NCBI GenBank assembly: GCA_028716245.1
Contig: JAQUQW010000005.1
Location: 288 to 64,287, forward strand
DNA: 64,000 nucleotides
Direction of reading: 5' to 3'
Source: Candidatus Omnitrophota bacterium
GTDB lineage: Bacteria > Omnitrophota > Gorgyraeia > Gygaellales > Profunditerraquicolaceae
Position numbers and translations under genes: made by a program. Below the pieces are notes generated by a model. That model was not told the DNA's origin, ran no database searches, and was given only the letters and a program-made list of their open reading frames with translations. Shown piece after piece: positions 31,378 through 64,000 of this stretch; position 1 is the stretch's first letter, and the number at the start of each line of letters is the position of its first letter.

Positions 31378-31378
31378 T

Positions 31379-43505: not shown

Positions 43506-43526
43506 TTAGAAGGAGGGAGGTTAAAG

Positions 43527-43694: not shown

Positions 43695-43717
43695 TTATTT
43701 TAGGGGAGGTGAATAAG

Positions 43718-44071: not shown

Positions 44072-44084
44072 GGAGGTGAATAAG

Positions 44085-44763: not shown

Positions 44764-44764
44764 A

Positions 44765-45940
44765 ATGCGTAAAAGAGCCCAGAGCATAAATGAATATGTG
44801 TTGGTGATTGCCCTAGTTACCTTAGCTGGTATAGGTATGCAGATTTATATTAAACGGGGCATACAGGGTATAGTGAAGACCTCTGCCGACAGATTAGCCG
44901 GTGAAAAAGGAGATTCAGTTGTGTATACGGGCAGTGCCAAAAGCATTTTACCCCGTGCGCAGTGGAATCCCGTTGCCATCGCGTACGCGGATAATAAGCT
45001 CAACGGCGGATTTTTTGTGGCTGAGGTAACCGGCAACCAAGTTTATTATAATCTTTATTCCGATAGCAGCAACCTTAATAATAAAACAGTTATTGGCGGG
45101 CAGGACTTAGCCAGCGGTGATTTTACCAGTTATGACTGGGAGGGTTATGTTGACGCGGTTTATGATAAAAACGGCAATTTAATTCAGAGTTTTACTCCCA
45201 AGCAGGCAAGGGCTGACTATGCTCCATATGAAATACTCTCATTAAATACTGCGGCGAATAAATCCATGGTCCAAAGTGGAGTGATGGAATTAGGCCTGGT
45301 TGCCTTTGACCAGAAAGATCATCCGTTGAAATTTACGGCGGACAAAAAAGTTATCGTACATACTGTTTCAAAGCATAGCATCAGCCCGCAAAATTTAGCC
45401 GCGGCGAATTGGCATCCGGCGATGACAGCGTATCAGGTGAAAATGGTACAAAATAATATTCCAGGATTTATCCAGGCAGAAGTGCAAGGCAATATGGTCT
45501 ACTATTATACATTCACCACCGATATCAAAAACAAGATACTTTTCGGCGGAGAGAATCTGCACACGGGGGATTTTACCCAATTCGGACCGGATGGTTTTCC
45601 CATCTCAACCGTAGATAGTAATCTCACTGTGCTCAGGACCTACAGCGGTTATGTAACCGATCCGGTAACCAAGGAGATTACGGGTATAATCGGCAGCGAC
45701 GGCAACATTTATGGGCAAAACCAGATAGTAACAATAAGCCCGGTGCTTCCAACCACTGGCCCGGCAACGGTTGCTTCTCCGATGACAACAAAGACCATCG
45801 ACCATGACACGACTCATGTTACCGGAGCATGGACCGCGGTTTATAAATTGGAAAACGCAAACACATTCGGCGCTAGGGACAAAACCGGTTTAAATAATAA
45901 TAATTTAAATGCTGGTAACAACGTGACGGGGCACCAATGA
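44765..45940 (+). CDS. giant Flp-type pilin (391 aa) with duplicated ~130 aa C-terminal repeat module
   Basis: MRKRAQSINEYVLVIALVTLAGIGMQIYIKRGIQG..., then two homologous blocks (...FFVAEVTGNQVYYNLYSD...GGQDLASGDFTSYDWEGY... / ...FIQAEVQGNMVYYYTFTTD...GGENLHTGDFTQFGPDGF...). Confidence 0.6.
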   Translation: MRKRAQSINEYVLVIALVTLAGIGMQIYIKRGIQGIVKTSADRLAGEKGDSVVYTGSAKSILPRAQWNPVAIAYADNKLNGGFFVAEVTGNQVYYNLYSDSSNLNNKTVIGGQDLASGDFTSYDWEGYVDAVYDKNGNLIQSFTPKQARADYAPYEILSLNTAANKSMVQSGVMELGLVAFDQKDHPLKFTADKKVIVHTVSKHSISPQNLAAANWHPAMTAYQVKMVQNNIPGFIQAEVQGNMVYYYTFTTDIKNKILFGGENLHTGDFTQFGPDGFPISTVDSNLTVLRTYSGYVTDPVTKEITGIIGSDGNIYGQNQIVTISPVLPTTGPATVASPMTTKTIDHDTTHVTGAWTAVYKLENANTFGARDKTGLNNNNLNAGNNVTGHQ

Positions 45941-46326
45941 TAACACGGGTTAGAAAACACAGATTAAACAAAGCAAAGGCGCAATCGACATTAGAATACG
46001 CCGTAGTCGTTGCCTGCGTAGTGGCAGCGCTTTTAGGTATGCAGTTTTACATCAGGCGGGGAATACAGGGGAAATTAAGGCAGGCAGCGGATGAGACCGG
46101 TGAGCAGTATACGCCGTTGAACGTGGATTCGAATATTACCACGCAAACAACGTCGACTACAACGGTAACGCAAAGTTTAACTCCATTAAACAGGGCGCCC
46201 GGCGTTCCTTTAAATGATGAGTATGATTTACCTGTATACGGAATAAAGACAGATACAAGTATTGATGAAACCACTACAAAAGACGGACAAGAAACATTAG
46301 GAGAGTTTGAAAATGGCTTATTTTAA
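45937..46326 (+). CDS. Flp-type pilin with Thr-rich C-terminal extension
   Basis: ...KAKAQSTLEYAVVVACVVAALLGMQFYIRRGIQGK...TTQTTSTTTVTQS... Confidence 0.6.
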   Translation: MITRVRKHRLNKAKAQSTLEYAVVVACVVAALLGMQFYIRRGIQGKLRQAADETGEQYTPLNVDSNITTQTTSTTTVTQSLTPLNRAPGVPLNDEYDLPVYGIKTDTSIDETTTKDGQETLGEFENGLF

Positions 46327-47326
46327 TAAAAAGGCGCAGAGTTTGACTGAGTTAGCTACTTTTGGCTCGGTACTTTTATTGGTGCTCTCCTTTTTTATCA
46401 GTTATGGGATGCGTTATAATTACCAGCAGGAGATACAGATGCGCGCTTTTCGCACCGCCCTTGCGCAGGCCTATACTAATACCAACCGGCCGGATGCCTC
46501 AGCTTCGGTTGTGTTGGTTGATGATAGGCATATACCGGATCCCCGCGATATGTTTGGCGCGGGTAGTATCGTTCCGGTGGAAGGCGGCGCTGAGGTAACC
46601 TGGGGCAATACTATGCAGGATGGATATCTCAATGTTACCAATCCTCCGCTTTTGCCCACGATAAAATACGTATTTAATGATCGGAATCCTGCAAACAGAG
46701 CGGAACGTGAATATAAAACCGCCGGTTATAATTATATTGATAATGCTTATCCATTCTATGTTATATTGCCTGGTAATACCGCGCCACAGTTAATAACCTG
46801 GGTAAATGTAAGGAATTACCAGCCTACCCCGGATTCGCCGCAACAGGCTATGGTATTGTTACCGAATCAAGATAAAGAGGTAATTACTGAGCTTTATTTG
46901 AAGACGGCGGGCCCGACGCCGGGATATATAAAATTTCAGATTATCGGAGTCAGGACTAATCCGCCCAATGGCGGTGATGGGACGCCCATTGACCAGATAT
47001 ATTTATTAAGTCCATCTTCAGGAGAGATCAACCCTAATTATATGCAATTAAATAATGATGTTGATATGAATGGTACTCCCGATGTAACTCCTGCTAATAT
47101 TCAAGGGCTATTATTGGAGGATAAGCAGGATATCCGGCGCAGCGGAACTATTACAATACAAGAGACTCCCGGGAAAACTATAAGCACCAGCACATACAGT
47201 TTTAAGGATAAAGCCGGGAATCCCACGACAATTACCCATAAAATTAGGAGTAGTTCAGGGGTGGAAGAGATTAATTTTCCTTTTGAGAGGGGAGGTGTTC
47301 CTTCGACATGGACAACACAAAAGTAA
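46313..47326 (+). CDS. TadE/TadF-like pseudopilin (339 aa)
   Basis: MAYFNKKAQSLTELATFGSVLLLVLSFF (TadE-like N-terminus), then a large periplasmic domain. Confidence 0.55.
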   Translation: MAYFNKKAQSLTELATFGSVLLLVLSFFISYGMRYNYQQEIQMRAFRTALAQAYTNTNRPDASASVVLVDDRHIPDPRDMFGAGSIVPVEGGAEVTWGNTMQDGYLNVTNPPLLPTIKYVFNDRNPANRAEREYKTAGYNYIDNAYPFYVILPGNTAPQLITWVNVRNYQPTPDSPQQAMVLLPNQDKEVITELYLKTAGPTPGYIKFQIIGVRTNPPNGGDGTPIDQIYLLSPSSGEINPNYMQLNNDVDMNGTPDVTPANIQGLLLEDKQDIRRSGTITIQETPGKTISTSTYSFKDKAGNPTTITHKIRSSSGVEEINFPFERGGVPSTWTTQK

Positions 47327-47565
47327 AAGCCCAAGTTGCGCTTGAGTTTGTCACCGCTTTTATTTGCACCATTCTTTTCTTGGTGGCAACCGCGCAAATA
47401 TTTGTCTGGTTCGGAAACACCATCGTTAACCGGAATAAAGCGTATGAAGAGACTCGCGCTGCACAGTGGCAATGGTTTAATCAGCCCGGTGATCCAATTA
47501 ACCCGGTGATAGTGGATTTCTATAATCAAAGCGATTATCCTCTAGATATATTCCATAAGAAATAA
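47308..47565 (+). CDS. TadE-like small pseudopilin
   Basis: MDNTKVKAQVALEFVTAFICTILFLVATAQIF... Confidence 0.5.
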   Translation: MDNTKVKAQVALEFVTAFICTILFLVATAQIFVWFGNTIVNRNKAYEETRAAQWQWFNQPGDPINPVIVDFYNQSDYPLDIFHKK

Positions 47566-47568
47566 AAA

Positions 47569-47739
47569 ATGAAAAAAAAAGGGATGAGCGTGGTAGAATA
47601 TAGTTTATTGATTGCCATAGTGATTGCCGGACTTTTGGCAATGCAGGTTTATGTTAAACGGGCGGTTAATGGACGCTGGAAGGAAACCGGAGATGTGTTT
47701 GGTTTTGGCAGGCAGACGGATAAAACGCTTCTAAAATGA
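47569..47739 (+). CDS. Flp-family pilin (56 aa); A9 homopolymer in codons 2-4
   Basis: MKKKG|MSVVEYSLLIAIVIAGLLAMQVYVKRAVNGRW...; ATGA overlap with tadB. Confidence 0.7.
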   Translation: MKKKGMSVVEYSLLIAIVIAGLLAMQVYVKRAVNGRWKETGDVFGFGRQTDKTLLK

Positions 47740-48581
47740 GACTACTAATTATCTTGCTTATTTTCGGATCGATCGGCGGTTTGGCCTATGAATTAATTCC
47801 CCTGCTTTTAGGCCGCTATTCTCAACTCCAGAGTAAACGCATGGAGAAAGCCTCCAAAGAGCTGCATCAGATGTTTATTTATACCGAAAAACACCGTTTA
47901 CTGCCGATGTTTACGATTACGCCTCTGGCGTTGGGCGCGCTGGGATTCATTATTTCGCATAACCTGCTGGGTGTTTTGGTGGGCGCGGGACTGGGTTTGT
48001 TATTGCCCCGGATATGGATTAAAAATGTTGGGCGCAAAAGGCAGAATGATTTTGCCAGGCAGCTGGTAGATGCGCTTATGCTTCTTTCCAGTTCTCTTAG
48101 GGCAGGGATGAGTTTACCCCAGGCATTTGAAGTACTTACCGAAGAGATGCCCGCGCCAATCAGTGATGAGTTCGCCTTGGTGATCAAAGAAAATAAAATG
48201 GGCGTGACTTTAGAGGATTGTTTGGCGCATCTCAAGCAAAGGATTCCCCTGGATGATTTGGAATTATTGACTACCGCCATAAGCATTTCCCGGGAAACCG
48301 GAGGTGACTTGACTGAAATTTTCGCCAACTTAGTGCAGACCATCAGGGAAAAAAGAAAATTAGATGACCGGGTAAAAGTACTGACTGTGCAGGGCCGCCT
48401 GCAAGGGGCGATTATGGGGCTTTTGCCAATCGCGTTCGCGATTTTCATTTATTTCATTAACCCGCACAATTTTGACATAATGTTTAGTGATAAAACCGGC
48501 CAGATGCTGCTTGTTTGGGCGGTGGTTTCCGAAGTAATCGGGGTAATCCTTATCCGGAAATTAAGCCGGGTGGAGATATAA
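47736..48581 (+). CDS. tadB: Flp pilus assembly inner-membrane protein TadB (T2SSF domain)
   Basis: 281 aa, TM-cytoplasmic domain-TM topology, T2SSF-like. Confidence 0.75.
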   Translation: MRLLIILLIFGSIGGLAYELIPLLLGRYSQLQSKRMEKASKELHQMFIYTEKHRLLPMFTITPLALGALGFIISHNLLGVLVGAGLGLLLPRIWIKNVGRKRQNDFARQLVDALMLLSSSLRAGMSLPQAFEVLTEEMPAPISDEFALVIKENKMGVTLEDCLAHLKQRIPLDDLELLTTAISISRETGGDLTEIFANLVQTIREKRKLDDRVKVLTVQGRLQGAIMGLLPIAFAIFIYFINPHNFDIMFSDKTGQMLLVWAVVSEVIGVILIRKLSRVEI

Positions 48582-48583
48582 AG

Positions 48584-49468
48584 ATGGAACTGGCGCTGAT
48601 TATTTTATTTTTGTTTACCAGTATCGGATTTGTGGCTTATTACGTTTCCAATCGAAAGCTGGTCGAAGAAGTGCATTTGCCTTCCGAGATTACCGGCGGA
48701 CCGGGGTCGGGGCTTAAGAAGGCATTTAATTTTAAAAATATTTTAAGCGGGCCAGCCAGTTTTATCGAGCGTTTGTTCGGCAAATCAAGCCTTTCTTTAC
48801 CTACGAGCGATTTGCATAAACGGTTAACTTCCTCAAATAAAATAATGAGCGTCAGCCAATTTATGGTATTCAAATTTTTAATGGCCGCGGCAGTGCCGTT
48901 GGCTGCCCTGATTATCGCTCAAGCAAAACCAGCGTTGCTGCTGCTTTGCGCCGGCATCGGTTTTATTTTACCGGATATCTGGCTGAATAAGCGGATCAAG
49001 AAAAGACGCGCCTTGATTGTAAAAGACCTGCCTTTGGTAATCGACCTTTTGAATATTTGCGTGGGGGCCGGTCTGGATTTTATGGTGGCGGTTAACCGGG
49101 TAATCCAGGAATTCAGGCCTTGCGCGCTTATTGAAGAAATGAAGATAATGACCAACGAAATCCAAATGGGCATTTCCCGGCGTGACGCGTTAAAGAATAT
49201 GTCCGCCCGCATTAATAACCCTGAGATCAGCTCGTTTGTGAGGACTCTTCTGCAGGCAGACAGGATCGGCACGCCGATAAGCGAGGCATTGAAGATGCAG
49301 TCAGAGGAGATCCGCCTGCGCTGGTTCCAAAAAGGCGAAGAAATGGCTTTGAAAGCCCCGATTAAGCTCTTATTCCCCCTGCTAATATTTATCCTTCCGG
49401 TGGTTCTAATCATTGTGGCCGGCCCTATTTTGATCCAGTTTACCAAGGGCGGGATGATGAAGTTTTAG
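48584..49468 (+). CDS. tadC: Flp pilus assembly inner-membrane protein TadC (T2SSF domain)
   Basis: Starts at MELALIILFLF; T2SSF-like (GAGLDFMVAVNRV...). Confidence 0.75.
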   Translation: MELALIILFLFTSIGFVAYYVSNRKLVEEVHLPSEITGGPGSGLKKAFNFKNILSGPASFIERLFGKSSLSLPTSDLHKRLTSSNKIMSVSQFMVFKFLMAAAVPLAALIIAQAKPALLLLCAGIGFILPDIWLNKRIKKRRALIVKDLPLVIDLLNICVGAGLDFMVAVNRVIQEFRPCALIEEMKIMTNEIQMGISRRDALKNMSARINNPEISSFVRTLLQADRIGTPISEALKMQSEEIRLRWFQKGEEMALKAPIKLLFPLLIFILPVVLIIVAGPILIQFTKGGMMKF

Positions 49469-52015: not shown

Positions 52016-52044
52016 TTGACAGCGTCTATGCGGGGTGTTATATT
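52016..52044 (+). promoter_or_regulatory. sigma70-like promoter upstream of the giant ORF (TTGACA-17-TATATT)
   Basis: -35 at 52016-52021 and -10 at 52039-52044, ~165 nt before the ATG at 52211. Confidence 0.5.
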
Positions 52045-52210
52045 TGGGTGTAAGTTGAAATGCCTTTTTTATTTGAAAACTTAGTAAGAAATTTTAAAAA
52101 CATTTTAAAATCCGGTAATCTCTTATGAAAAGAAGCTTCATTAAAAAAATGAAAAGTCTTGGGGTAAGGGGAAATATTTATTTTTTATTTAATACTATAG
52201 AAAATAAAAG

Positions 52211-55200
52211 ATGAATATAAATCAGCAGCCGACAGAAGACAGTATTGAGCAACCCAAAAAAGAATTCAAGTCGAGTTTTAAGACTTGGATCCGCGCGGTT
52301 GCTTTTATTGTTATCGCGGTATTCCTGCCGGAGCAGGCGGCCCAGGCAATGGGCTATGATCCCACCACAATCTGGAACCATTCTTATTTTGTAAACCAGG
52401 GTAAAAATGGATTTTTAACTTATCTTGTCGCGGACAATATCAAGCGTTCTCTGGACTCCCTTTCATACAAACAATTAAATCAGGTTCAACTGGATAAAAA
52501 TTTAGTGGTTGAAACTGCGCCTCTTAAAGAATCAGAAACCAGTACGAAGGCCTCTGAGCCAAGCAAAGTGGACCAAAGCAATTTTTATGACAAAATCGGC
52601 AATGCCCTGCAAAGTGGCAGCGCGGAAATTATCCGCTTTGCAAGCAACGGCCTGAAGAAAACTTCCCTACCCGATCAATCCTCCCCTACCACAAGGCAAG
52701 GAACCGCCTCCAGCCAGAAACCGTCACTTTATTTGACCGGCTCAGTAGTAAAACAAATCAGCCTGTGGCTTAAGGATCCAAAGACACAGGTTGATAACAA
52801 CTGCGGTATAAACGCGCTGAATGCTTTATTTGTCCAATCAGGGATTAAACTTAGCCGCGAAGAATTGGCAACCCGGGCAATTATGGTTGATTTTCTCTCA
52901 GGCAATCTAAGGGAATTTAAGGGTGAACTTGCCCTGTCCCTGTTTGCCCTGCAAAAAACCGCTGTATCTTTTGGCCTCAAAACCGCTTTAGTCAAAATCC
53001 CCGCGGCATCATTGCAAGGGGGCCAAGCAATCTCTTCCCTAGTTCCCTTTATTACTTATCTCTTATCTGAACACTTCGTCTTAGTAACCCGCGTCACCAA
53101 TGATAAAATTTATTATAAAGAAGATAAAGAAGAAGCCAATATGCCCAAGGAGATTTTCCTTAAAGGCTTCACCGGCAATTGCTTGCTGCTTGATTCTAAG
53201 CTATTGCAAGGGAGCAAGGCAATTTCCTTACTTTCTGACAAAGAAGCATTGGAAATTAGCGGTAAGGAGAGTTTTTTCGACAGGTATAATTCATTGAAGT
53301 CGTCTATTAGCAACACAGCTAAATCCAGCATATCCAGCATATCCAGCATTAGTTCTACCGCCCAATCTTATGTTTCCAAAGCCAGCAGCACCTATACTGC
53401 CGCAAGCAATGTCTACAACACAGTTAAGTCTGTAACTGGCATTTCCATAAGCTCTATTGTGACAAGAAGCTCCATCCCCAGCAATCCTCTAAGCGCCATC
53501 AGTGTTCCTGTAACCACATATAACTATCTGGCTAGCCCCTCCACCAAAGGAAATTTAGGCAAAAGCTATGGCGCTGCAAATACCCTGCAAACCGATTTCG
53601 CTTTAACCGTACCCAAGCGTGCATATGATTTTACCGGCTGGGTAGATACTGTCAGCGGCCTTAATTCAAACCTGGGAACCAAGCTTTATCAGAGCTCCAG
53701 TCTAGTCAGATCCATCTCCGATGCTTATTCTGGGGCCAAAGGAAGAACCGAGTCCTCTTTAAAGCAAACCTACGGAATAGGGACTTATAATAATTTTATT
53801 AAACCCACAGAATATTTCGTTGCAGATACCGCAATTACTACGGCTGCTACTTTAGGTATCGGTTCAGCTGTTGGCCTTGCGGGAGGTACACTTAGCCGGG
53901 TTGGCTCTGTCAGCCGTATTGCCGAACCTATCATTTCTCGTTTGCCTCAACTTAGCCGTATCACAGAAATAGCCGGCCCAAAGGTAGGCCAGGGCCTTGA
54001 GTGGGTAGGGACAAAGGGTTGGAGCGCGGGAAAATGGATGATGAATCCTGCGACTGGAAGATGGGCGATAGCAAAAACAGCGATTAAATATTCAGGTTTA
54101 TCTTTTGTTCCCGCTACCCCTCAGTATTGGGCTACCAGCGCCGCATTCACAACCTATAATTATTTAAATAATTCTTCCACGGTGGGTAATGTACGTAAAA
54201 GTTTTACGGCCGACGCTAAAGTTCGCGAAGGAGTAGTTATTAGTGTAGCGGAGAATGTCGCGGGAATGCCTAATGGGATACTTGAGATAGGAACTTGGGC
54301 AACAGGCGGGTTAACAGGTTTTGACCAGAAAAAGTACTTGAATTTGAGGGCTCAATATTATGATAATACCGATTTAGTTAAATCCTTGAATAAATCATAC
54401 GGTGATTGGAAGCAAAAAGAAATAGCTGATCCTTTAATTGCAATATATGGGCAAAACAAATATAACACTGCGGTGAAGCCGCAAATTGAAGTTGGGGGAT
54501 TTGTGGGAAGCTTATTTGTTCCTATTGCCGGAGAGGAGAAAATATTAACAAAGGCCGGGTCTATAATAAAGGCAGGCAAAATAGCTGATGCAGTAATCGA
54601 TGTGAGCAAAGGAGTTAGAGGGATTAGGGGAATAGATGTTGCGGTTGATTTGAACAAAGGGATTAAAGCAACCAGGACAGTGTCTTATGCAGACGACACT
54701 TTGAGATTAACGCAGAAATCATATACGCCCATCAGAAATTGGGGACAAAGTCAGAGATTGGTTACGTCGATACACTCCTCAAGTTTAACTTCAAGAATTT
54801 TACCTCATTCGACACAAATCACTTTGGCTAATTCAAGGGCGCTTAACTTAATAACTAGATACGAACCGATTAATCTTATGAAGCAAAAAGTTTCAAGGCC
54901 GATATATAATTATCTGGAACGAAAAACTCTTAAACCAATATCTGATTCTTTAAAACCGTCTTATAAGTATGTAGCTAAGAACAATCCTGTTTCTTTAACT
55001 AAGCTGGGCGAATATAAATCTACAGCAGGGAAGTTAATAGGTGACCGTATTCCGCTAAGAATGAAAAATGTTTTTGCTGAAGAAAGCGCATCGGTATCGC
55101 TTGGTTCTTTAGATAAATCAGCAAGATTGTTGTATCAAGGTGGGAAAGGGCTATATCAAGGTGGAAAATGGTTTGGCAAGAATCTTATTACCGAATTTGT

Positions 55201-58200
55201 GCCTCGCCTGCTATTCTACGGGAGTGTATTCGGAACGCTTGATGCTGCATTTATCTATAAAGATAATCAATTTAATCAAGCAACAGGTGAGCTCTCAGGC
55301 AATAATCCTCTTCTTTTTTGGCTAAGAGCGACAGAATTGAATATGGGTTTTCAGATTCTAGGGGCGAAAAAGGCATTGTGGGATAAAGACTTATTCGCCG
55401 CAGAGAAGTATAAAGGATTAGCCGATAAAATGTCTAAAATTTCCATGGGCGGCCAGCTTGGAAATGGTGTTTATTTATTTGTTAATCCTCAGGATATTCA
55501 GGATCCTAATTTACGTAAAGCAGTAGAAATGATCCCCAGTCCTGTAAGGAGAGCCATTGCTATTCCTGTCCAGATGGTTGCTACCAGCGAAGGGTTTGCC
55601 AGTTTTCCTGCTATGACCACGTATTCAACCGCTTATTATACTCAAGCGGGTTATAATAAAGAAGGATATTGGGGATGGAATGGTGCATTATCAGGATTTT
55701 TCCGCGGCGCGGTTGTTATCCCCAGCGTGGCGATGTTTTCGTTTACCACTTCAGTGCTTGCTGCGGGTATAAATACATTTACTTTTGGAGATCGATATAA
55801 GAATGCGCAAATTAGCAATTGGGTTATTAATTCTTTGGGAAAACCAGTCGCGAGTTTTATCGCTCGCAGAGACGTGGATTTTAAAACTTACGCTCAGCCT
55901 GAATATATTGACATTGCGCATAGAGACGCGGCCGCCAGCCAGGATAAATATGAGGGAGCTGATTATTTTTTCGGCAATCTTTTTATGATGGGAGGTTTTA
56001 GGCAAGCAGTTGGTTTAAAGCGGCCCGAGGCAAAAGATGTTTCAGGCAGGCGTCATTTTGACACCCCGCTTATTGACGCTGGCCAAAGAGTTTCAGGCGC
56101 ACTGCTTACCCCGATGCATCTTACAACTGCTCCTATTTACGGAGGTTATAGTCATTATGCCGGAAAAGTAGCGGAAACAAGAATAGGAAAGTTTTTAGGT
56201 TTAGATGTTACGCAGAGCCGCGGTTTAAAGAATAGCATAGCGGCGCAATACAAAGAAGTTGGCCAGGGCATTTTAGGGATTAGCTCCTTTACTTTAGGCA
56301 ACCTGAATAAAATAGCAAAGTCGGAAGTAAATCTGGCACGGATATCCCTTCCTTTGGAGATAGCCCGGAAGATAAATGAACGGAGAGAAGAATTGAATGG
56401 GGTAACTCTAAAAATAGGTGAAGTGGAAGAGCAAATTCGTTTAAATGAACGTAATTTTCTTCGTAAGCCAGATTCCGAAAATTCACAAAAGAAGAGAGAG
56501 TTATCCACAAAGAGAGCGGAATTAACGGCTTATAAAATGAAGTTAAGTAACTTAGTTGAAGTTGAGGGAATAAAACAAAAGATAGTTTCGCTGGAAATCG
56601 CCGGGAGGTTTGGAACTAAAGATTATAATCAAGCTGTTGAGAAGTTTGTGAAAGCGGATTTAGGCGGCGGAGTTGAGGGTATTCTAAATAGGCAATTTAG
56701 GACGGATCTATTGAATAAATATAAGCGCGTTAAAACAGAAGGAGATGGTAACGGATTAAGCCGGGCTTGGAATAAAATAAGCACAAATTCAGAATACAAT
56801 CGGGCGGTGAAAACTTTGGATGCTATCAAGGATATAGACATCGGGAAAATAGATGAAGTTATTAAAGATACGCAAAATCAAATACAAAAATCAATTGAAG
56901 CGTTAGACAAAACCTCAAGACTTGCCTATCTGAAAGAAAACGGGCTAGGGAGCATTGCGGGATTGAATGATAATTCAAGGCGAGAATTGGCCAGAAAATT
57001 TTATGAAGATGGTGTTACTGCTGAAACGATTAAAGAAAAAGGTTTTTGGGAAAATTGGCAAGAATTCGGGCAGGGCTTAAGCGGGATCAGCCAAGAAAGA
57101 ATGAATGACGGGATGCGGGAATTATTTAAGCTGAGAGTACTTAAGTTTGACCAGGAAAAGATGGAAAAAGGTATTGATTCCGGGTTTAGAGTCGATTTCG
57201 AGGCAGGAAAAGAACTTAAAGCGGGCACAGCTGAGCGGAAGATTTTTGATACTCTGGAAAAAATGAATGCTAAAGGGTATAATTTTCAAAATTCAGTTGG
57301 TGATTTAATAAAAAACTGGGATTGGAAGAAAATTTCCGAAGATTCAGTAAGATTCGCGGAAAGTAAGGATGAGTTAGCCAACATATTGTCCACCCACTCG
57401 TCAATATTAAAGAATCCCGATGCAATGAATAATCCAGAATTTAGGGGGTTAGATAAATTACTTAAAGATTCCAGAGGGAAAACTGAACTGGGTATATTCT
57501 TAGCTTTAACTACTTTTAAACACTCCGGCGGCCGGGAAAGTCTTGGTTTATTTGCTTCTCCCAACGAATTAAAACGGGTATATGAGAAAGTATTGGAGAA
57601 AAATTTAGGAGGAGAAAAAATCAGTTTCGGAGAAGGGGTGGATGGAATCAAGGTTAAGCTTGGCGGAGTAGATTATACTTTTGTAAAAATTACCGAAGAA
57701 AGTATTAAATCTTCTTACTTAAGTAATAATTTAGACAAATTAAATGAGATTTTTAAAGATAAAATTATCCTTACCGATATCTCCACTTTACAGAATCTTA
57801 ATATGCAAAAAATCGTTCCTTCACAAGGGGAGGCGGAAAAGCAGTTGGCCAAGCGGCTGGCTGAAATTATTTATGACCGGGCAGTTATAATCGATGAAAT
57901 CCATCAGGTTTCTCAATCCCCTTACCATATAGTTGGTTTTGACGGCAAGACTCTTGCAGAGTTTTTAAAACCTGCCGAGTATGAAAAATATGTTGATGTT
58001 GCTGAAAAAATAGACAGAAAATTCCAAGAATTGGCTAACCTTGAAGAAGTTACAAATAATAAGGGTGAGCCAGTCACAACAGTCAAAGGCTATGGTAATT
58101 TAGGGGATAGATTAATTAAAATGGAATATGTTGATGAATATAAAGGTCTTACGACAGCAGGAGAGAATGAATTCAAGAGATTATTAGGCGATAAATTTGT

Positions 58201-61200
58201 AACGCAAGCAGAGAATAAAGATTTCAGTATTGAACGGCTTTTGGTAAATTCTTTTGTCAGGAACCTGTTTGAGAAAGAAGAACAGGAAGGTGGTTTTGGC
58301 CTGAAGAAAAACGAGAGGCAGGAAGACGAGGTCCATCCGGTGCATTTTGGAAAAATTAATGAAAAAATGCAGTGGTCAACTCCGGAAGAGGCAATTTCGC
58401 GCTGGGTTCTGGGTTTCCGGATGAAAGATATCAAGACGAAAGATAAAGATAATAACATTATTGATATTCCAGTAAGGGAAATTATCAGTAAAATAAAAAT
58501 AAGCGAAGAGTCAGTAAAAGTCTCCCCGATTTCGGTTCTTGCCAATTTCAAATCCTCTAAAACATTTTTCTCGGCCACTCCTTTCTACGCCGAGACTATG
58601 TCTGATCTTTTAGGGGTAAAGTACCAAGGCGACGCGGCTAAATTTATGGCCAAGGTTAAATCTGATTTAGAAGGCAGGATAGAGAAGGGGAAAGTCGGAG
58701 TAGGGGATTATGGAGAAATGATTAGGGATGGTAAGTTTAAATTAGCCGACGATAGGCCGAATATTATTCTGCCGGCTTTACTGACACATATTCCTGATTT
58801 TCTGAATAAAGTGTCTAAGGCTGCTGGCGGGAGAGATGTTTTCTATATTGAAGTTGATGATACTGTTTCTAAAATAGTAGATGGCCAGAGAGTAGAGAAA
58901 TTAGAATTATTAAAGGAACCATCAGGGGAAATAATCAAGCCGAAGGATCAGCTTGAAAAGAGAGTGAATGAGGGCAAAAATATAGTGGTGGTCTTCAGTC
59001 CGTCTAAATTAACCAGCTTTAGTTTTGATGTTAAGAAAGCCGAAGGAACTCAAAAAGAAGCCCAGTATACACTTATTATGGATAAGGATACTTCAGCTAC
59101 TGATTATTGGCAGGCCTTGAGAAGGAATAGAGAAAACCTGGAAGATTTTAATGTTATCTTCAATGGCCCAGCGGGTGAAGAGCCATTAAAGGATATCTGG
59201 AAGGATACTATATGGAAAGATAGTTTAGTAAAAACCGAGAATTTAAAAAAGAATGACGCTTTGGTCAAGGCTATAACCGAAACCCATCAGGATGCCATGG
59301 CTGGCCGGTTTGTTAGGTTCACGGAGGTTTTTCCGGAAAGGGCTGATCTGGCTTACCAGCTGCTCAAAGCTTTTCAGAGCAAACACGCCAAAGACACTGA
59401 TATTACTCCGGATAAAATACGCTCTAATGCTTATCGGCAGATTATTAGCGGCTTCAACAGTGACATTACATTCTTTAATGATGTCATCAAAGATTTTTCT
59501 CCTTTGCTTCTTTCCAAGGAAATAACTGAAGGCAGCGGAGAAACGAAGCATACTTTAAAATTTAAATTAACTTCCGCGGAAAAGAGATTTTTTGAGGATT
59601 ATCTTAAACAAGACAAGATTTTCAGAGACAGGAATGGCTTAGATTCAAGCAGAAGCACAGGGGTTGATAAAGCCAAGGTAAAATCCGAGTTAGAAGCCAT
59701 AGCCAGGTTTAAAGGCATACCTAACCTTGAAGCTGCCCGGTTTAGGGATTATTTGGCGCAAAGATATTCAACTAAAGAATTACTTAGGAAAAAAGTTTCT
59801 TCCCCGGAATCCAAGGAGGCTATAGTAGTGGCACAACAGAAAATTCAAGATGCGCTGGAAACTAAAAATGGAACAACTCCCAAAGAATTAGCCGCCGATA
59901 TAAGACAAGATTTAATCGGGCGTGGTTACACTGAATCAGCGGTTGCCGGAGTCTTAAGCCAGATGTATCCTTCCTTGAAAGAGAGTAATTGGCTAGCAAG
60001 GCGAGGGATAAATGCTAATTATATTGGTCAAGGCGTATTAGGATTTGGGCAGGCATTCTTGTTTATCAATAATCAGGAAAATAAAGAGAAAGATTGGTTT
60101 ACAAAACTTATAGAAAAATTAAATTTTTCCTTGGGTTATGGCAAAGCAATTGGCACTATTCAGTCTTTTAGCGGTGAGTTTGAACCCGAATTTAAGGAGT
60201 TTTTATCAAAATACTATGAAACTGATGGCGCAAAGGGAAATATGCGGACAGCGTTAAGGTCATCCTTAGATAAGATGATTGCCGCATCAGTAAGGGGCGT
60301 GTGGGAGTCGAGAAAAAATTTAGAATTCTACCAATATATGAAGGATATGGCGGGAAAAAACATCCCAGCGGAAGATAAATTAGAAGAGCTTAAAAAGATA
60401 AACGGCTATTTAGACATGATGTCTGTATTGGGGGCCGACGGGAAAGAATCGATAGAGAAGGCTTTTAAAGAAAAATTAAAAAATGAAAAAGCATTAAAAG
60501 ACGAAATAAGCAGGCTCGATAAATTATTGAATCACCAAATAGCCAGGACAAATGAATTGAATGTTTTGAAAGCAAGATTGGGGAGGCTCAATGATGTAGA
60601 TGAGCTGCAAGTAGCTTTATGGGCGCAGAAATTTGTAAGCCCTGCGGAAAAAAGATCCGGGATAATGAATAAGATAATGACAGCGCTGGGGATGAAAGAA
60701 AAGTTAAATGTAGCTGACTTGGCCGAGGACATTCGTGAGGAAGTAAATGAAAACATAGATGCCGTTGTTAAAGAAGGAAAAATCCCCGAGCTGGTAGTTG
60801 TTTTTGGCAAAGCTAACAGCAGGGAAATTAAGGATACAGTAGCAATTCAAAATAAATACTATGAAAAAAATAAGATAGCTAAAGTGCAAATTCCGGTATT
60901 CCTTGATGAATCGGTGAAAAGCAGCCTGATAAGTTCTTTAGGGATATTCTACAATCAAGATAATCCTTCTTTGGGGGTATCCAGCAGATATTATTCCACA
61001 GAATTCTTGATGGAATATTTGGTTAAACCTTTACAGAAACAAATTTTTGAGGACAGAGGGATCAAAGGATTTGTGATGCCTGTTGGGAAAATACCTTTGT
61101 CAGCCCGGGAACACGGTATTGTTACCAATATTTTAGGAGAAGGTTCAGCGCAGGCCAAAGGCGCTTTCATAAGCACCCATCCTTATACTACAGGGTGGAT

Positions 61201-64000
61201 GGGCGGCGTTATATCAACCATCGGACTAATACCTTTATTTGGTAGATTATGGGATTTCTTCGGAACAGGATTTAAAACTGCATTGCAGAGAGTAATGAAC
61301 CATGAATTAGGGCACGTTCATAGGTTAGGGCACGATGCGAAAGCAGCATATTCCGTAATGTCTTCTTCTGAGAAAGAAGATGGCTCGTTCTGGTCTTGGA
61401 AATGGCACTTCTGGAGGAAAGATAATACTTATCAGCCGGAGCATCTTGAGACAATCAAAAAAGATATCGCTCAATTAACTGGTGGAAAAGGTTCGGCAAC
61501 CAGTTCGGATGTTTTTGTATTACAACAGGTAACGGCAGATTTACTTAAAGGAAAAGAATCATTAGCAAAGATATCTAGCCGTAGTGAACTTTATCGAATA
61601 GGTGGCAACCTCAAAGCTGTTGCTTATTATTTAGAATCCCTTTCTTCCGCTGAAAAAAAAGAGATATTTGCCAGGATAGATGCATTTGCGGATATTTTAA
61701 GAGGCCATCCTAAAGAAGATATCATGGGTTATAAGAAAAACGGGTTTGATGCGTCAGCTCATAGTATGGATAAAATAGTCGGATTTTTTAATCTGTTAAG
61801 TAATACAGAACTCAACCCCTCTGAAAAAAGTTTTAAGGAAACCCTTTTGAGCCAGAATTTGCTTGTGGGAACAGAGAGTAACTATCAAGCAAACGGTGAA
61901 TGGTATATTATTGGTTTGGTTAGAGGCTCTTCATTAATTACCCATGAGTTAAGACATATCGTTTACCGGGCAATTGAAGCATATAGAAATGCCGTTAATA
62001 CAATGTGGAATAATATTCCAGTAGATAAACAGAAGATCATCGCGGAGCTCTTAACTAAAATCGGAGGCTATGATTTTAAAGGAGAAGAAGGACAGGCTCT
62101 GCTTGTGCGTGAATACGCCGCATATTTAGCAGATTGGCCTGCTTTCCAAGAATACTTGAATAAAAAAGAGCATGCTTCGGAAGATAGGCTATTTTTCGAG
62201 CAACAATCTCGGAATCTTCTATCTATTGAAGAAAATAATGCCCAGGCAATAAGACAATTTTTTAAAGAAAATTCTGATGAACTAGGTACTTCGGCTGAAG
62301 ATAAACGCGACGGCGGCATGGTTAGAGGCGGGCAGGCGAATGTATTTATAAATGGTGAAAACGTAAATAAACAAATTTTTGATAAAGAGGCCGTTAATTC
62401 TTATCAGCTGGCCATAGAAAGATTGGGAGAAGCGTCACTAGGTATTAACGCATTTAATAAATATGGAAATGGGACAGCTTCGGTCAATCAGAATTTTGCC
62501 ACGCCATTGTATGATCATTTAGCTAAGCTGGTAAGCGAGAATAAAATAGCCGAGGCTAAACAAGCCATAAATAATTTGGTCGGGTTTATTTACAGGCAAT
62601 GGGGCGCGGGGATTATCGACACCGACCATAAGTATTTACTGGATTATGGAGTGGATGGGAATGGCGAAATAATTTGGCTTGACCCGGGCAAGGCTTCTTC
62701 CAGAAAGACAGATTTTGTGATTGACTCGTATCGGGAGAGCGGAGACATTAAAGGTTCTTTACTTGGATTAAGCCAGGAATTATATAATTATTATATAGGA
62801 TTGACGGCTAATTTTGCTGATGAATTCCAGAAACATTGGCCCGAAGGATCTCTGACAGATGCAGACTATATGTTTGACGGCGGAACAGTGGAAACTGTGG
62901 CCAAATTGATTGCCGAATACAGAGTAGTGTTGCCGGTTAACGAAGCCATAGCGAAAGTAAGAGGATTGGGTTATTCTGAAGAATTAATAACTAAGGCAAT
63001 CGGTTACAATATTGGATTAGGAAGCGGGTTTTCTAACAATCCTTTGGATCGCGGCGGTAATAAGCAAGACAAGACAGGGCAGCGGCCGGCATCTCCAGCG
63101 CTTCCGTTGGCTCCGGGAGGGCAGAATGTGCCAGGCGTTAATGTTGTTAGCCATAGCGGGGTTGCAGGCAGCTCCAATCAGGCCTTAGTTGGCAGCAGGC
63201 CCGTATTACCTAATAATAGCGGGATTGAAACGATCATTCCCAGCATAAGACTTCAAGCTATTGGTGTTTTAACCAGCTTTACCAGCGGTTTGGCTCCGCC
63301 CGCGGCCCTCGCCAAAACTTTTATCTCAAATGTATCAAGTAGTGTAGCAAATGCAGTAAGAAGTGCAGTTGAATTAGCTGAGAAACTCTCAGGTGCCCAG
63401 AGTGCAAACTCCGGAAATGGAGAAAAAGGGCAGGATGCGAGAAGTGCGTCCGGCAATAATATAGGTAAGAGAAGTGAAGTAACTTCAACAGGAACCAATG
63501 GTGAGGCAAAATATGCCGAAACCCGAGGTTCTATTCGTGCGTATAGCTTCCCCGCTAGCTTTATTAATGATTTAAAGAAGTTAATCAGCATTCTTCAGTT
63601 CAAAAATCCGTTAATTCCCGTATTAAATCAATTTATTAATAAATTATCAGGGGTCAGCTCCTGGCTGTCCTCAAAGACAGTTCTGGCCTACAGGAGCACC
63701 CTTGATTTAAATAATGCTGAAGCCATTCCTTCTTTACGCGATGGGGGAGATGAAGGGGCTCTTGAGATTTATGAGGTCATTAAAAAGATCGGTAATTTAG
63801 TTGAAAAAATGGTCGAGGATCTTAAGAGCAAACGAAGGCCGGGTGAAACTATCGCAGGGAGATATCCTGGCGAGAAGAATAGACGCATAAGGGATGCAAT
63901 AACTCGTAACGCAGAGGATAGTATAAAGTCGATGCGCAGATTAGGGATGACCAAGCCTTTGTCTATAGATGAAGTAGGTTTAAATAACGACGATGATTTT
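52211..64000 (+). CDS. giant ORF, 5' portion (at least 3,930 codons, runs off the window); predicted signal-anchor and surface or secreted protein
   Basis: ATG at 52211 preceded by an in-frame TAA. I read the frame as open to 64000. The ORF track shows no complete + strand ORF over this 11.8 kb, as expected if one incomplete ORF spans it. Also present: an N-terminal hydrophobic segment, a Ser-rich 9 bp tandem repeat, and two HExxH motifs. Confidence 0.7.
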   Translation, partial: MNINQQPTEDSIEQPKKEFKSSFKTWIRAVAFIVIAVFLPEQAAQAMGYDPTTIWNHSYFVNQGKNGFLTYLVADNIKRSLDSLSYKQLNQVQLDKNLVVETAPLKESETSTKASEPSKVDQSNFYDKIGNALQSGSAEIIRFASNGLKKTSLPDQSSPTTRQGTASSQKPSLYLTGSVVKQISLWLKDPKTQVDNNCGINALNALFVQSGIKLSREELATRAIMVDFLSGNLREFKGELALSLFALQKTAVSFGLKTALVKIPAASLQGGQAISSLVPFITYLLSEHFVLVTRVTNDKIYYKEDKEEANMPKEIFLKGFTGNCLLLDSKLLQGSKAISLLSDKEALEISGKESFFDRYNSLKSSISNTAKSSISSISSISSTAQSYVSKASSTYTAASNVYNTVKSVTGISISSIVTRSSIPSNPLSAISVPVTTYNYLASPSTKGNLGKSYGAANTLQTDFALTVPKRAYDFTGWVDTVSGLNSNLGTKLYQSSSLVRSISDAYSGAKGRTESSLKQTYGIGTYNNFIKPTEYFVADTAITTAATLGIGSAVGLAGGTLSRVGSVSRIAEPIISRLPQLSRITEIAGPKVGQGLEWVGTKGWSAGKWMMNPATGRWAIAKTAIKYSGLSFVPATPQYWATSAAFTTYNYLNNSSTVGNVRKSFTADAKVREGVVISVAENVAGMPNGILEIGTWATGGLTGFDQKKYLNLRAQYYDNTDLVKSLNKSYGDWKQKEIADPLIAIYGQNKYNTAVKPQIEVGGFVGSLFVPIAGEEKILTKAGSIIKAGKIADAVIDVSKGVRGIRGIDVAVDLNKGIKATRTVSYADDTLRLTQKSYTPIRNWGQSQRLVTSIHSSSLTSRILPHSTQITLANSRALNLITRYEPINLMKQKVSRPIYNYLERKTLKPISDSLKPSYKYVAKNNPVSLTKLGEYKSTAGKLIGDRIPLRMKNVFAEESASVSLGSLDKSARLLYQGGKGLYQGGKWFGKNLITEFVPRLLFYGSVFGTLDAAFIYKDNQFNQATGELSGNNPLLFWLRATELNMGFQILGAKKALWDKDLFAAEKYKGLADKMSKISMGGQLGNGVYLFVNPQDIQDPNLRKAVEMIPSPVRRAIAIPVQMVATSEGFASFPAMTTYSTAYYTQAGYNKEGYWGWNGALSGFFRGAVVIPSVAMFSFTTSVLAAGINTFTFGDRYKNAQISNWVINSLGKPVASFIARRDVDFKTYAQPEYIDIAHRDAAASQDKYEGADYFFGNLFMMGGFRQAVGLKRPEAKDVSGRRHFDTPLIDAGQRVSGALLTPMHLTTAPIYGGYSHYAGKVAETRIGKFLGLDVTQSRGLKNSIAAQYKEVGQGILGISSFTLGNLNKIAKSEVNLARISLPLEIARKINERREELNGVTLKIGEVEEQIRLNERNFLRKPDSENSQKKRELSTKRAELTAYKMKLSNLVEVEGIKQKIVSLEIAGRFGTKDYNQAVEKFVKADLGGGVEGILNRQFRTDLLNKYKRVKTEGDGNGLSRAWNKISTNSEYNRAVKTLDAIKDIDIGKIDEVIKDTQNQIQKSIEALDKTSRLAYLKENGLGSIAGLNDNSRRELARKFYEDGVTAETIKEKGFWENWQEFGQGLSGISQERMNDGMRELFKLRVLKFDQEKMEKGIDSGFRVDFEAGKELKAGTAERKIFDTLEKMNAKGYNFQNSVGDLIKNWDWKKISEDSVRFAESKDELANILSTHSSILKNPDAMNNPEFRGLDKLLKDSRGKTELGIFLALTTFKHSGGRESLGLFASPNELKRVYEKVLEKNLGGEKISFGEGVDGIKVKLGGVDYTFVKITEESIKSSYLSNNLDKLNEIFKDKIILTDISTLQNLNMQKIVPSQGEAEKQLAKRLAEIIYDRAVIIDEIHQVSQSPYHIVGFDGKTLAEFLKPAEYEKYVDVAEKIDRKFQELANLEEVTNNKGEPVTTVKGYGNLGDRLIKMEYVDEYKGLTTAGENEFKRLLGDKFVTQAENKDFSIERLLVNSFVRNLFEKEEQEGGFGLKKNERQEDEVHPVHFGKINEKMQWSTPEEAISRWVLGFRMKDIKTKDKDNNIIDIPVREIISKIKISEESVKVSPISVLANFKSSKTFFSATPFYAETMSDLLGVKYQGDAAKFMAKVKSDLEGRIEKGKVGVGDYGEMIRDGKFKLADDRPNIILPALLTHIPDFLNKVSKAAGGRDVFYIEVDDTVSKIVDGQRVEKLELLKEPSGEIIKPKDQLEKRVNEGKNIVVVFSPSKLTSFSFDVKKAEGTQKEAQYTLIMDKDTSATDYWQALRRNRENLEDFNVIFNGPAGEEPLKDIWKDTIWKDSLVKTENLKKNDALVKAITETHQDAMAGRFVRFTEVFPERADLAYQLLKAFQSKHAKDTDITPDKIRSNAYRQIISGFNSDITFFNDVIKDFSPLLLSKEITEGSGETKHTLKFKLTSAEKRFFEDYLKQDKIFRDRNGLDSSRSTGVDKAKVKSELEAIARFKGIPNLEAARFRDYLAQRYSTKELLRKKVSSPESKEAIVVAQQKIQDALETKNGTTPKELAADIRQDLIGRGYTESAVAGVLSQMYPSLKESNWLARRGINANYIGQGVLGFGQAFLFINNQENKEKDWFTKLIEKLNFSLGYGKAIGTIQSFSGEFEPEFKEFLSKYYETDGAKGNMRTALRSSLDKMIAASVRGVWESRKNLEFYQYMKDMAGKNIPAEDKLEELKKINGYLDMMSVLGADGKESIEKAFKEKLKNEKALKDEISRLDKLLNHQIARTNELNVLKARLGRLNDVDELQVALWAQKFVSPAEKRSGIMNKIMTALGMKEKLNVADLAEDIREEVNENIDAVVKEGKIPELVVVFGKANSREIKDTVAIQNKYYEKNKIAKVQIPVFLDESVKSSLISSLGIFYNQDNPSLGVSSRYYSTEFLMEYLVKPLQKQIFEDRGIKGFVMPVGKIPLSAREHGIVTNILGEGSAQAKGAFISTHPYTTGWMGGVISTIGLIPLFGRLWDFFGTGFKTALQRVMNHELGHVHRLGHDAKAAYSVMSSSEKEDGSFWSWKWHFWRKDNTYQPEHLETIKKDIAQLTGGKGSATSSDVFVLQQVTADLLKGKESLAKISSRSELYRIGGNLKAVAYYLESLSSAEKKEIFARIDAFADILRGHPKEDIMGYKKNGFDASAHSMDKIVGFFNLLSNTELNPSEKSFKETLLSQNLLVGTESNYQANGEWYIIGLVRGSSLITHELRHIVYRAIEAYRNAVNTMWNNIPVDKQKIIAELLTKIGGYDFKGEEGQALLVREYAAYLADWPAFQEYLNKKEHASEDRLFFEQQSRNLLSIEENNAQAIRQFFKENSDELGTSAEDKRDGGMVRGGQANVFINGENVNKQIFDKEAVNSYQLAIERLGEASLGINAFNKYGNGTASVNQNFATPLYDHLAKLVSENKIAEAKQAINNLVGFIYRQWGAGIIDTDHKYLLDYGVDGNGEIIWLDPGKASSRKTDFVIDSYRESGDIKGSLLGLSQELYNYYIGLTANFADEFQKHWPEGSLTDADYMFDGGTVETVAKLIAEYRVVLPVNEAIAKVRGLGYSEELITKAIGYNIGLGSGFSNNPLDRGGNKQDKTGQRPASPALPLAPGGQNVPGVNVVSHSGVAGSSNQALVGSRPVLPNNSGIETIIPSIRLQAIGVLTSFTSGLAPPAALAKTFISNVSSSVANAVRSAVELAEKLSGAQSANSGNGEKGQDARSASGNNIGKRSEVTSTGTNGEAKYAETRGSIRAYSFPASFINDLKKLISILQFKNPLIPVLNQFINKLSGVSSWLSSKTVLAYRSTLDLNNAEAIPSLRDGGDEGALEIYEVIKKIGNLVEKMVEDLKSKRRPGETIAGRYPGEKNRRIRDAITRNAEDSIKSMRRLGMTKPLSIDEVGLNNDDDF

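Follow-up and report, generated by a model that had tools for sequence, protein, structure and literature searches.

Enzyme-like domains in the N-terminal part of an Omnitrophota giant protein encoded near a Tad-like locus

We analysed a 64,000-nucleotide stretch of DNA from a Candidatus Omnitrophota bacterium (hereafter, the window), in which a giant open reading frame (ORF) on the + strand occupies the last 12 kb or so. This segment is likely the 5′ end (~12 kb) of a C39-headed Omnitrophota giant gene, which forms its own transcription unit near a Tad/type II secretion system (T2SS)-like locus and encodes a membrane-associated multi-enzyme polyprotein that may be used with the Tad apparatus in attachment or predation. 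The gene class, the C39 head and the upstream secretion locus have already been described; the gene in the window is a further member, dissected here in detail. The coordinates of all features are collected in Table 1.

The giant frame and its encoded domains

The giant ORF is a real gene under purifying selection. No stop codon occurs in 3,930 codons from 52211 to 64000 on the + strand. With a stop probability of 0.069 per codon at the local composition, a frame of this length would arise by chance with a probability of 2.6e-123. The ATG at 52211 is the sole start candidate, and a stop in the same frame precedes it at 52205–52207. An exhaustive HMMER search returned a 99%-identical protein, MDD5477973.1 (4,101 aa; 'hypothetical protein, partial [Candidatus Omnitrophica bacterium]' in GenBank), encoded on a 64,802-bp contig of an Omnitrophota metagenome-assembled genome (MAG) that corresponds to the window plus about 800 bp. 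The contig, and this protein with it, stops inside a tandem (AKQEAGA)n repeat, a typical point of assembly breakage; the gene is therefore cut by the contig end and not finished. The initial annotation of this DNA had recorded an uninterrupted but incomplete frame and had proposed extension of the contig to find the stop; in the database protein, the frame is still open at 4,101 aa.

The nearest relatives of the giant ORF product all come from Omnitrophota MAGs. The closest locus, designated L001 (MAG STD1_64, contig JAQURC010000004.1), carries a collinear ORF, 75–79% identical and open for >5,200 codons, which likewise runs off its own contig (length at least 5,202 aa). About 3,350 codons align between these two independently assembled MAGs, and the ratio of non-synonymous to synonymous substitution rates (dN/dS, throughout for the window against L001) was 0.37 for all aligned codons, 0.18–0.21 for the recognizable domains and 0.40–0.47 for the linkers. 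In addition, the domain order is repeated in four other fragments (P0009, P0012, P0015 and P0018). The stop codons or chimeric assembly that the initial annotation had feared are contradicted by the collinear independent MAG and by purifying selection, which together exclude a chimera as well as a frame without coding function. In agreement with the earlier description, repeats are scarce: Tandem Repeats Finder detected only seven tiny arrays, and a direct LYQGGK-GLYQGGK duplication lies at 55130–55165, inside the hypervariable block described below.

Scans of the whole protein against Pfam, NCBIfam and PDB sequences gave no matches, and these negatives were false: hmmscan of the undivided 3,930-aa sequence missed the C39 domain even at E ≤ 1, while a 200-aa segment containing it gave E = 4e-9. 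Giant ORFs thus need piecewise scanning. Segment-wise analysis, as had been recommended with the initial annotation, gave the C39 peptidase, an ATPase of superfamily 2 (SF2)/DEAD type, and metzincin-like and gluzincin-like parts.

The protein head carries a hydrophobic segment, WIRAVAFIVIAVFL, at aa 26–39 (nt 52286–52327), within a hydropathy peak at aa 21–39. The surrounding stretch is the best conserved of the family: among 74 related ORFs, the W and R of K-x-W-I-R are conserved in 100%, and the A-x-A motif in 83–97%. Because this conserved A-x-A motif (AQA/MG) follows the hydrophobic segment, the N-terminus bears a closer resemblance to a Sec signal peptide of the cleavable kind than to the signal anchor initially suspected. 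Such strong conservation of a signal peptide is unusual and suggests a role beyond generic Sec targeting. The pattern F-K-x-W-I-R-x-V-A ... P-E-Q-x-A-x-A at aa 23–48 (52277–52354) was specific enough to recover 206 metagenome loci.

The sole Pfam-significant domain of the protein is the Peptidase C39 domain (PF03412, 36.8 bits against a cutoff of 22 in the segment scan). Its Cys198 (in NNCGINAL) and His288 (in SEHFVLV) are invariant in an alignment of six relatives, and dN/dS is 0.20. It is followed by a Ser/Thr-rich linker (dN/dS 0.41), in which (ATCCAGCAT)x3 at 53323–53349, with 100% matches, encodes SISSISSIS; Ser and Thr together make up 21.8% of aa 1–500. The hydrophobic segment, this triplet repeat and the two HExxH motifs were all located as first annotated. 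The next block is hypervariable, being 29% identical to L001 while both flanks are 75–79% identical, and its aa 948–1356 are homologous (34%) to a more distant relative, P0001. Hydropathy indicates candidate membrane segments in this block at aa 754–779, 992–1015, 1115–1133 and 1167–1185. The block behaves like a membrane-proximal cassette swapped by recombination.

The centre of the available segment (aa 1720–2340) carries the motifs of a divergent two-lobe ATPase, which are kept in eight relatives; the domain shows a dN/dS of 0.18. In one relative, P0015, the P-loop reads GQTGEGKS, and the sequence exceeds the Pfam cutoffs for both DEAD (28.0 against 26) and ResIII (26.2 against 22.5). An AlphaFold (AF2) model built from eight sequences was of moderate quality (predicted local distance difference test score, pLDDT, 64.5), and the best full-length PDB matches of this model in Foldseek were SecA (3jv2_B; probability 0.94, query TM-score 0.30, E = 5e-3) and RIG-I-like helicases. 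In common with SecA and other SF2 ATPases, the model has two RecA lobes, and motifs I, II (DEIH), III (SAT) and VI (QxxRRNR) occur in order. The preprotein-binding domain of SecA sits after motif II, and the ATPase of the window has an insertion at this place; P0015 additionally has the SecA-like TGEGKS. The differences from SecA are the degenerate Walker A, the embedding in a giant chain, the lack of significant sequence similarity, and the lack of identifiable scaffold or wing domains. In a word-indexed homology search, the motor region gave one match and the motor alignment none. The domain is therefore assigned to the SF2/DEAD-type ATPases; SecA comes closest to it in structure, by a weak match.

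Beyond the ATPase and a conserved block without a Pfam match in the segment scan (aa 2341–2841), two HExxH motifs are found where about 0.02 are expected from composition, a ~90x excess. The first, HELGHVHRLGHD (HELGHVHRLGH, 61301–61333), has its Glu and all three His at canonical metzincin positions, the third His at +10 from the first. It is followed by YSVMSS (61349–61366), a candidate Met-turn, whose Met lies nine residues past the third His and lines up with the VMS of archaemetzincin. In a seven-member family alignment, the only invariant columns are the first His, the Gly and the Met-turn Met. A profile of this family, searched against PDB, matched almost only metzincins, namely archaemetzincin 2x7m (E = 0.004), fragilysins and dozens of matrix metalloproteinases (MMPs), in matches that span only about 35 residues around the motif with marginal E-values. 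A homologue, P0010 (49% identical), gave sub-cutoff Pfam matches to M54, M10, reprolysin and M66 only. The dN/dS of this domain is 0.21, and it is best described as a metzincin-like zinc peptidase. It shares the HExxHxxGxxH(D) pattern and the Met-turn spacing with archaemetzincin (M54), fragilysin (M10C) and the MMPs (M10A), and differs from them in a long family-specific N-terminal part and in an Arg for the motif Gly in the copy of the window.

The second HExxH motif belongs to an optional gluzincin-like module (module 2), an indel relative to L001, the nearest relative, which lacks it. The conserved Glu of REYAAY lies 56 residues past the first His of HELRH, and in 21 sequences the module residues H141, E142, H145 and E197 show little or no variation. 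The HExxH and the downstream Glu are shared with the M34 anthrax-lethal-factor-like gluzincins (PPEP-2/3, lethal factor, and the lethal-factor-like domains of edema factor and Certhrax). As to a zincin-like fold of the HExxH regions, which the initial annotation had suggested testing, both motifs stand in conserved zinc-peptidase-like contexts; for module 2, the structure model is confident but its M34-like fold matches are weak. The family of module 2 consists of small stand-alone proteins without a Pfam model, mostly from Bdellovibrionota (named members come from Bacteriovoracaceae, Oligoflexia, Pseudobdellovibrionaceae and Omnitrophota), several of which, on reading, open with signal-peptide-like N-termini. 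Module 2 may represent a previously undescribed, predation-linked zincin family common to the two phyla.

The last region in the window, aa 3371–3930, is 79% identical to L001 by blastp (84% over aligned codons; dN/dS 0.47) and gave no Pfam or PDB matches. By inspection, aa 3468–3494 (62612–62692), IIDTDHKYLLDYG...IIWLDPGK (IIDTDHK...IWLDPGK), bear a loose likeness to the catalytic-loop/DFG region of protein kinases, for which Pfam and PDB sequence searches were negative. The continuation of the frame in L001 (L001:11924–17032) contains the repeat in which the contig of the window breaks, here as (AKQEAGA)x5, an Asn/Gly/Ser-rich tract and clearer hydrophobic helices (aa 4461–4659 of its product, P0008), and reaches a perfect JAMM/MPN+ motif, HYHPGFGSDISAVD; this is a match to the motif only, and a Pfam scan of the segment was negative.

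Leader, promoter-like site and Tad-like neighbourhood

A sigma-70-type promoter-like site upstream of the gene would give it a transcription start of its own. The same sequence is kept 5′ of the L001 gene, and a strict match was found in only 15 of 80 related loci. Between this site and the giant ATG lies a conserved leader, which recurs at L001:1337–1423 and in 18 other loci, and which gave no match to any Rfam family. It holds a Shine–Dalgarno (SD)-like block (UUGGGGUAAGGGGAA, GGGGUAAGGGGAA) that is invariant at the nucleotide level. An AU-rich hairpin, with the AUG of the giant gene in its 3′ arm, recurs in 18 loci, nearly without covariation, and the leader folds more stably than shuffled sequences do, with a z-score of −3.3. 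A leader ORF of 25–30 codons is present in 20 loci (consensus MK+xxIKxxKxxGVRGxIYFLFNxI). This ORF terminates between −10 and +4 nt relative to the giant start, in a relative frame that differs among loci, and its substitutions show no third-position excess (0.24/0.28/0.28 by codon position). These features would fit translational coupling through a leader peptide, a ribosome-binding site split at the RNA level between the GGGGUAAGGGG block and the hairpin, or both. By eye, a short repeat CATTGCGAGG...CGAAGCAATCT (translated as ...SLRGA.RRSNL...) was seen in the intergenic DNA 5′ of the giant gene of L001 (L001:1030–1140), and the same repeat appears to occur in frame within P0001 (aa ~135–165) and P0008 (aa ~350–375), and not in the protein of the window.

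The Tad genes of the window form two clusters, at 28.8–33.6 kb and 43–49.5 kb, and the small pilin-like genes of the second show weak class III signal peptide and Flp matches. Two unusual fusions were observed at 29725–33556: a secretin with a C-terminal TonB_C, and a CbiA/ParA-type (TadZ-like) ATPase on the N-terminus of T2SSE/CpaF. After the end of tadC at 49468 come an ORF6N-domain gene, an ORF on the minus strand and a non-coding stretch of about 700 bp with the promoter-like site.

The conservation of this arrangement was assessed in the 206 metagenome loci that share the conserved head, of which 80 were retrieved for analysis. In 80 of 81 loci, the head-bearing ORF is still open where the available sequence stops; the remaining one ends at 527 aa. 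Synteny was counted in the 38 loci with >8 kb of upstream sequence: TadB and TadC homologues lie 5′ of the giant ORF in 35 of them, unk409 in 27, unk339 in 18, ORF6N in 3 and the minus-strand ORF in none. Across related loci, 12 bp to 8.9 kb (median 1.3 kb) separate tadC from the giant gene. The ORF6N gene and the minus-strand ORF look like a lineage-specific insertion at an otherwise conserved junction. The position 'immediately downstream of the Tad locus' given by the initial annotation therefore holds for the conserved link and not for the immediate adjacency in the window, where two ORFs and about 700 bp intervene. Its suggestion of a host-associated ultrasmall bacterium with a giant gene and a pilus system agrees with the source, a MAG of Omnitrophota, an ultrasmall, host-dependent lineage, and with the conserved Tad association. 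The window also contains chromosomal housekeeping genes (P-type ATPase, PFOR and tRNAs).

Table 1. Features of the giant gene, its leader and its upstream neighbours (positions in the window)
Feature	Position	Strand	Details
Giant ORF, first 3,930 codons	52211..64000	+	Open frame; cut by the window edge, then by the contig end
Signal peptide, aa 1–46 (predicted)	52211..52348	+	Basic n-region; h-region WIRAVAFIVIAVFL; c-region PEQAAQA/MG
Peptidase C39 (papain-like cysteine peptidase), aa ~186–335	52766..53215	+	PF03412; Cys198, His288
Ser/Thr-rich low-complexity linker, aa 340–626	53228..53800	+	Includes (ATCCAGCAT)x3
Hypervariable, Gly-rich, moderately hydrophobic block, aa 627–1360	54089..56290	+	Candidate membrane segments
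Divergent two-lobe SF2/DEAD-type ATPase, aa 1720–2340	57368..59230	+	Motifs I, II, III, VI
ATPase motif I	57467–57484	+	DSRGKT
ATPase motif II	57887–57910	+	IIDEIHQV
ATPase motif III	58565–58582	+	SAT
ATPase motif VI	59111–59131	+	QALRRNR
Conserved block, no assigned fold, aa 2341–2841	59231..60733	+	93% identical to L001; dN/dS 0.175
Metzincin-like zinc peptidase, aa 2842–3104	60734..61522	+	First HExxH; Met-turn candidate
Optional gluzincin-like module (module 2)	61523..62320	+	HELRH 61943–61957; Glu in REYAAY 62108–62125
Conserved region, aa 3371–3930	62321..64000	+	Runs on past the window
Sigma-70-type promoter-like site	52016..52044	+	TTGACA-17-TATATT, extended −10 TG; 11/12 consensus matches
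Conserved leader	52060..52214	+	Two small ORFs chained by ATGA overlaps; invariant block; AU-rich hairpin
Leader small ORF 1	52060–52128	+	22 codons
Leader small ORF 2	52125–52214	+	29 codons, MKRSFIKKMKSLGVRGNIYFLFNTIENKR; stop overlaps the giant ATG as ATGA
Tad/T2SS-like locus, first half	27918..35859	+	Rotamase_2 peptidyl-prolyl isomerase (PPIase), RcpC/CpaB, secretin-TonB_C, TadZ-like-CpaF (T2SSE), unknown 767-aa protein (Pfam)
Tad-like locus, second half	43099..49468	+	Small pilin-like genes, two unknown proteins, TadB, TadC (T2SSF) (Pfam)
ORF6N-domain gene between TadC and giant gene	49595–50107	+	
Unannotated 332-aa ORF between TadC and giant gene	50517–51515	−	

Described giant proteins and rival readings

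Full-length giant proteins of Omnitrophota have been reported to consist of long N-terminal regions without identifiable domains, except for C39 near predicted signal peptides, and their genes to include SecA-DEAD-like domains and an upstream locus of gspD/E/F, rcpC, Rotamase_2 and class III signal peptide genes (West-Roberts et al. 2023, bioRxiv 10.1101/2023.11.21.568195). These authors proposed that C39 may cut, and the SecA-like domain may export, the giant protein. Among 916 long Omnitrophota proteins, the PF03412 group forms the largest architecture cluster, with Tad cassettes in the flanks (bioRxiv 10.64898/2026.06.07.730766). Known giants of the phylum include the 'Archaeovorins' and a 39,678-aa protein of Velamenicoccus archaeovorus LiM. 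Tad genes and giant ORFs have been regarded as signatures of symbiosis or predation, and the TadB/C of Omnitrophota group with those of Bdellovibrionales (Seymour et al. 2023). The protein analysed here resembles the described giants in its phylum, its N-terminal signal peptide and C39, its long domain-poor N-terminal region and its divergent helicase-type, putatively SecA-like ATPase, and the upstream secretin, GspE/F-type, RcpC, Rotamase_2 PPIase and class III signal peptide genes are all in the window; it differs in that none of its relatives matches the SecA_DEAD Pfam model. The 'function unknown' of the initial annotation, which had missed the C39 domain and the ATPase, thus overlooked a described gene class. 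Glycosyl transferases, hydrolases, methyltransferases and NUDIX domains of the Archaeovorin kind were found neither in the available 3,930 aa nor in the next 1,700 aa of the relative, and would lie further 3′ if present. The main text of West-Roberts et al. 2023 contains neither 'zinc' nor 'JAMM', and its sole 'metallo' is an M36 metallopeptidase in a giant protein from outside the phylum; the cassette-like block, the metzincin-like domain and the gluzincin-like module thus seem to be new relative to that text. Compared with the main texts published so far, four points seem to be additions: the metzincin-like assignment, the optional zincin-like module and its relatives in Bdellovibrionota, the block that behaves like a cassette, and the conserved leader.

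Several observations weigh against the reading of the segment as the start of an exported, Tad-associated giant polyprotein. The available sequence sets minimum lengths of 4,101 aa for this protein and 5,202 aa for the relative, and 'giant' in the sense of >10,000 aa is extrapolated. Beyond the signal peptide, Kyte–Doolittle hydropathy gives one strong and about five moderate segments, mostly at aa 536–1185; clear spans are few, so that which parts lie outside the cell is inferred. Gly-Gly sites stand at chance level (26 observed against 25.6 expected), giving self-cleavage by C39 no support from the sequence. For the ATPase, the Walker A (DSRGKT) is non-canonical, the SecA_DEAD model (PF07517) matched none of the eight relatives, an hhalign comparison of the family with Escherichia coli SecA aligned only the Walker A loop (E = 0.24), and the fold match to SecA, with the values given above, is weak. 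In the first zinc-peptidase-like domain, the canonical motif Gly is replaced by Arg at aa 3038 (61322–61324), where L001, P0010, P0014 and P0009 have Gly, and one relative, P0011, has a degraded motif (HVLGN), so that the activity of the copy in the window is uncertain. Finally, the body behind the head varies, with the motor profile in 4 and HExxH-1 in 1 (L001) of 26 long ORFs; since these domains are rare behind the shared head, the architecture of the window belongs to a small sub-clade. Specific homology to SecA had also been considered for the ATPase and is unsupported by sequence, given the lack of a SecA_DEAD match, of a significant hhalign result and of any match of the family profile to PDB sequences; the label was for this reason kept at SF2/DEAD type.

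The main live alternative, tenable although not probable, concerns the location of the product. It accepts the same gene family, and holds that the product is anchored in the inner membrane with the ATPase, the metzincin-like domain and module 2 mostly on the cytoplasmic face, forming a scaffolded assembly with several enzyme activities or a regulatory role, and not an extracellular effector or adhesin. The ATPase requires cytoplasmic ATP, and no convincing hydrophobic span separates the motor (aa 1720–2340) from the two peptidase-like domains. The 'surface protein' of the initial annotation was accordingly an assumption, given a central ATPase that has to be cytoplasmic and few candidate membrane spans by hydropathy. 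Moreover, 46% of long Omnitrophota proteins were classed as 'TM-only' (transmembrane segments only), with the bulk predicted to be cytoplasmic (bioRxiv 10.64898/2026.06.07.730766), and the transmembrane predictions of West-Roberts et al. 2023 are unreliable by the authors' own account. However, the conserved head has a signal peptide with an A-x-A site, a hypervariable cassette is expected of an exposed, interaction-facing region, and published proteomics tie a giant Omnitrophota protein to cell attachment. The signal-peptide-like N-termini of the stand-alone homologues of module 2 suggest that this module acts outside the cytoplasm, and do not settle the question.

The ORF6N domain is associated with phages and other mobile elements. 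The presence of such a gene just upstream, together with a mix of SF2 ATPase, zincin-like and papain-fold peptidases that resembles the class, could point to a 'polyvalent protein' of a conjugative element or phage, delivered with DNA into recipients against host defences. We consider this very unlikely: the protein has an N-terminal signal peptide; TadB/C are neighbours in 35 of 38 loci and ORF6N in only 3; the context in the window is chromosomal; and no methyltransferase, primase or relaxase-type domains were detected in Pfam scans of the giant ORF. A tblastn search with the motor found no relative in 50,697 phage or 72,556 plasmid records, and an origin from a mobile element was rejected.

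C39 domains are usual in bacteriocin-processing ATP-binding cassette (ABC) exporters and HlyB-type transporters, and the classical domain is cytoplasmic. The domain of the window, which has its catalytic Cys and His in place, resembles those of bacteriocin exporters and the inactive C39-like domain of HlyB in scoring above the PF03412 cutoff, whereas it is not fused to an ABC transporter, has no evident double-glycine leader substrate and, following a signal peptide, is probably extracytoplasmic. Exporter fusion and double-glycine cleavage concern the context and not the fold, so that the domain can nonetheless be a C39 peptidase. The product might still be viewed as a classical repetitive adhesin or type I secretion substrate, with C39 marking export of the bacteriocin/RTX type; both roles of C39 are mentioned by West-Roberts et al. 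2023, and giant adhesins are common in symbionts according to the literature. This view, too, has little to recommend it. Pfam segment scans and the neighbouring genes revealed no ABC transmembrane or nucleotide-binding domain fused to or adjoining the giant gene; Ig-like, RTX and beta-helix repeats are missing from the essentially non-repetitive sequence; the ATPase and the peptidases give the protein an enzyme-like content; and Gly-Gly sites stand at chance level. It is scarcely credible that the long frame stems from a chimeric assembly or does not code: the contig ends within a tandem repeat, and the variable block and module 2 differ among close relatives, but the chance of such a frame is about 1e-123, two independent MAGs are collinear with dN/dS of 0.18–0.47, four further fragments keep the domain order, and the variable block is itself homologous to P0001.

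Proposed function and significance

Surface exposure and function of the giant product are inferred here. In the polyprotein that we favour, the signal peptide would probably place the C39 head outside the cytoplasmic membrane by Sec-dependent export, and the hydrophobic segments of the variable block would probably return the chain, leaving the ATPase in the cytoplasm. Following the published proposal, the ATPase might help to thread or assemble the giant product at the membrane. The peptidases, as the literature suggests, could perhaps cut the polyprotein and/or attack envelope proteins of prey or host, and the whole product might work with the adjacent Tad-like apparatus in attachment to, or predation on, other cells.

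A more far-reaching version, which we regard as improbable, would be a self-exporting, self-processing polyprotein gated by its own leader. The SecA-like ATPase would thread the chain, the peptidases, including the one with the JAMM motif in the relative, would release effectors used with the Tad-like machine against prey, and the cassette and the Bdellovibrionota-type module would set prey specificity. The small ORF, the SD-like block and the AUG-masking hairpin could then tie costly initiation to the status of translation or secretion, loosely as SecM does for SecA.

Giant genes are among the main unexplained features of Omnitrophota, and their N-terminal regions have been reported to be domain-poor except for C39. 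The overall picture of these genes is unchanged by our analysis. In at least one sub-clade, the N-terminal region resolves into successive enzymes: a cysteine peptidase, an SF2 ATPase, a metzincin-like peptidase and, optionally, a gluzincin-like module, joined by linkers under weaker constraint. One block appears to be swapped like a cassette, and one module is common with stand-alone proteins of Bdellovibrionota, a phylum of known predators. The catalytic residues, as targets for mutation, and domains of a size suited to expression make the processing of the giant protein and its targets experimentally approachable.

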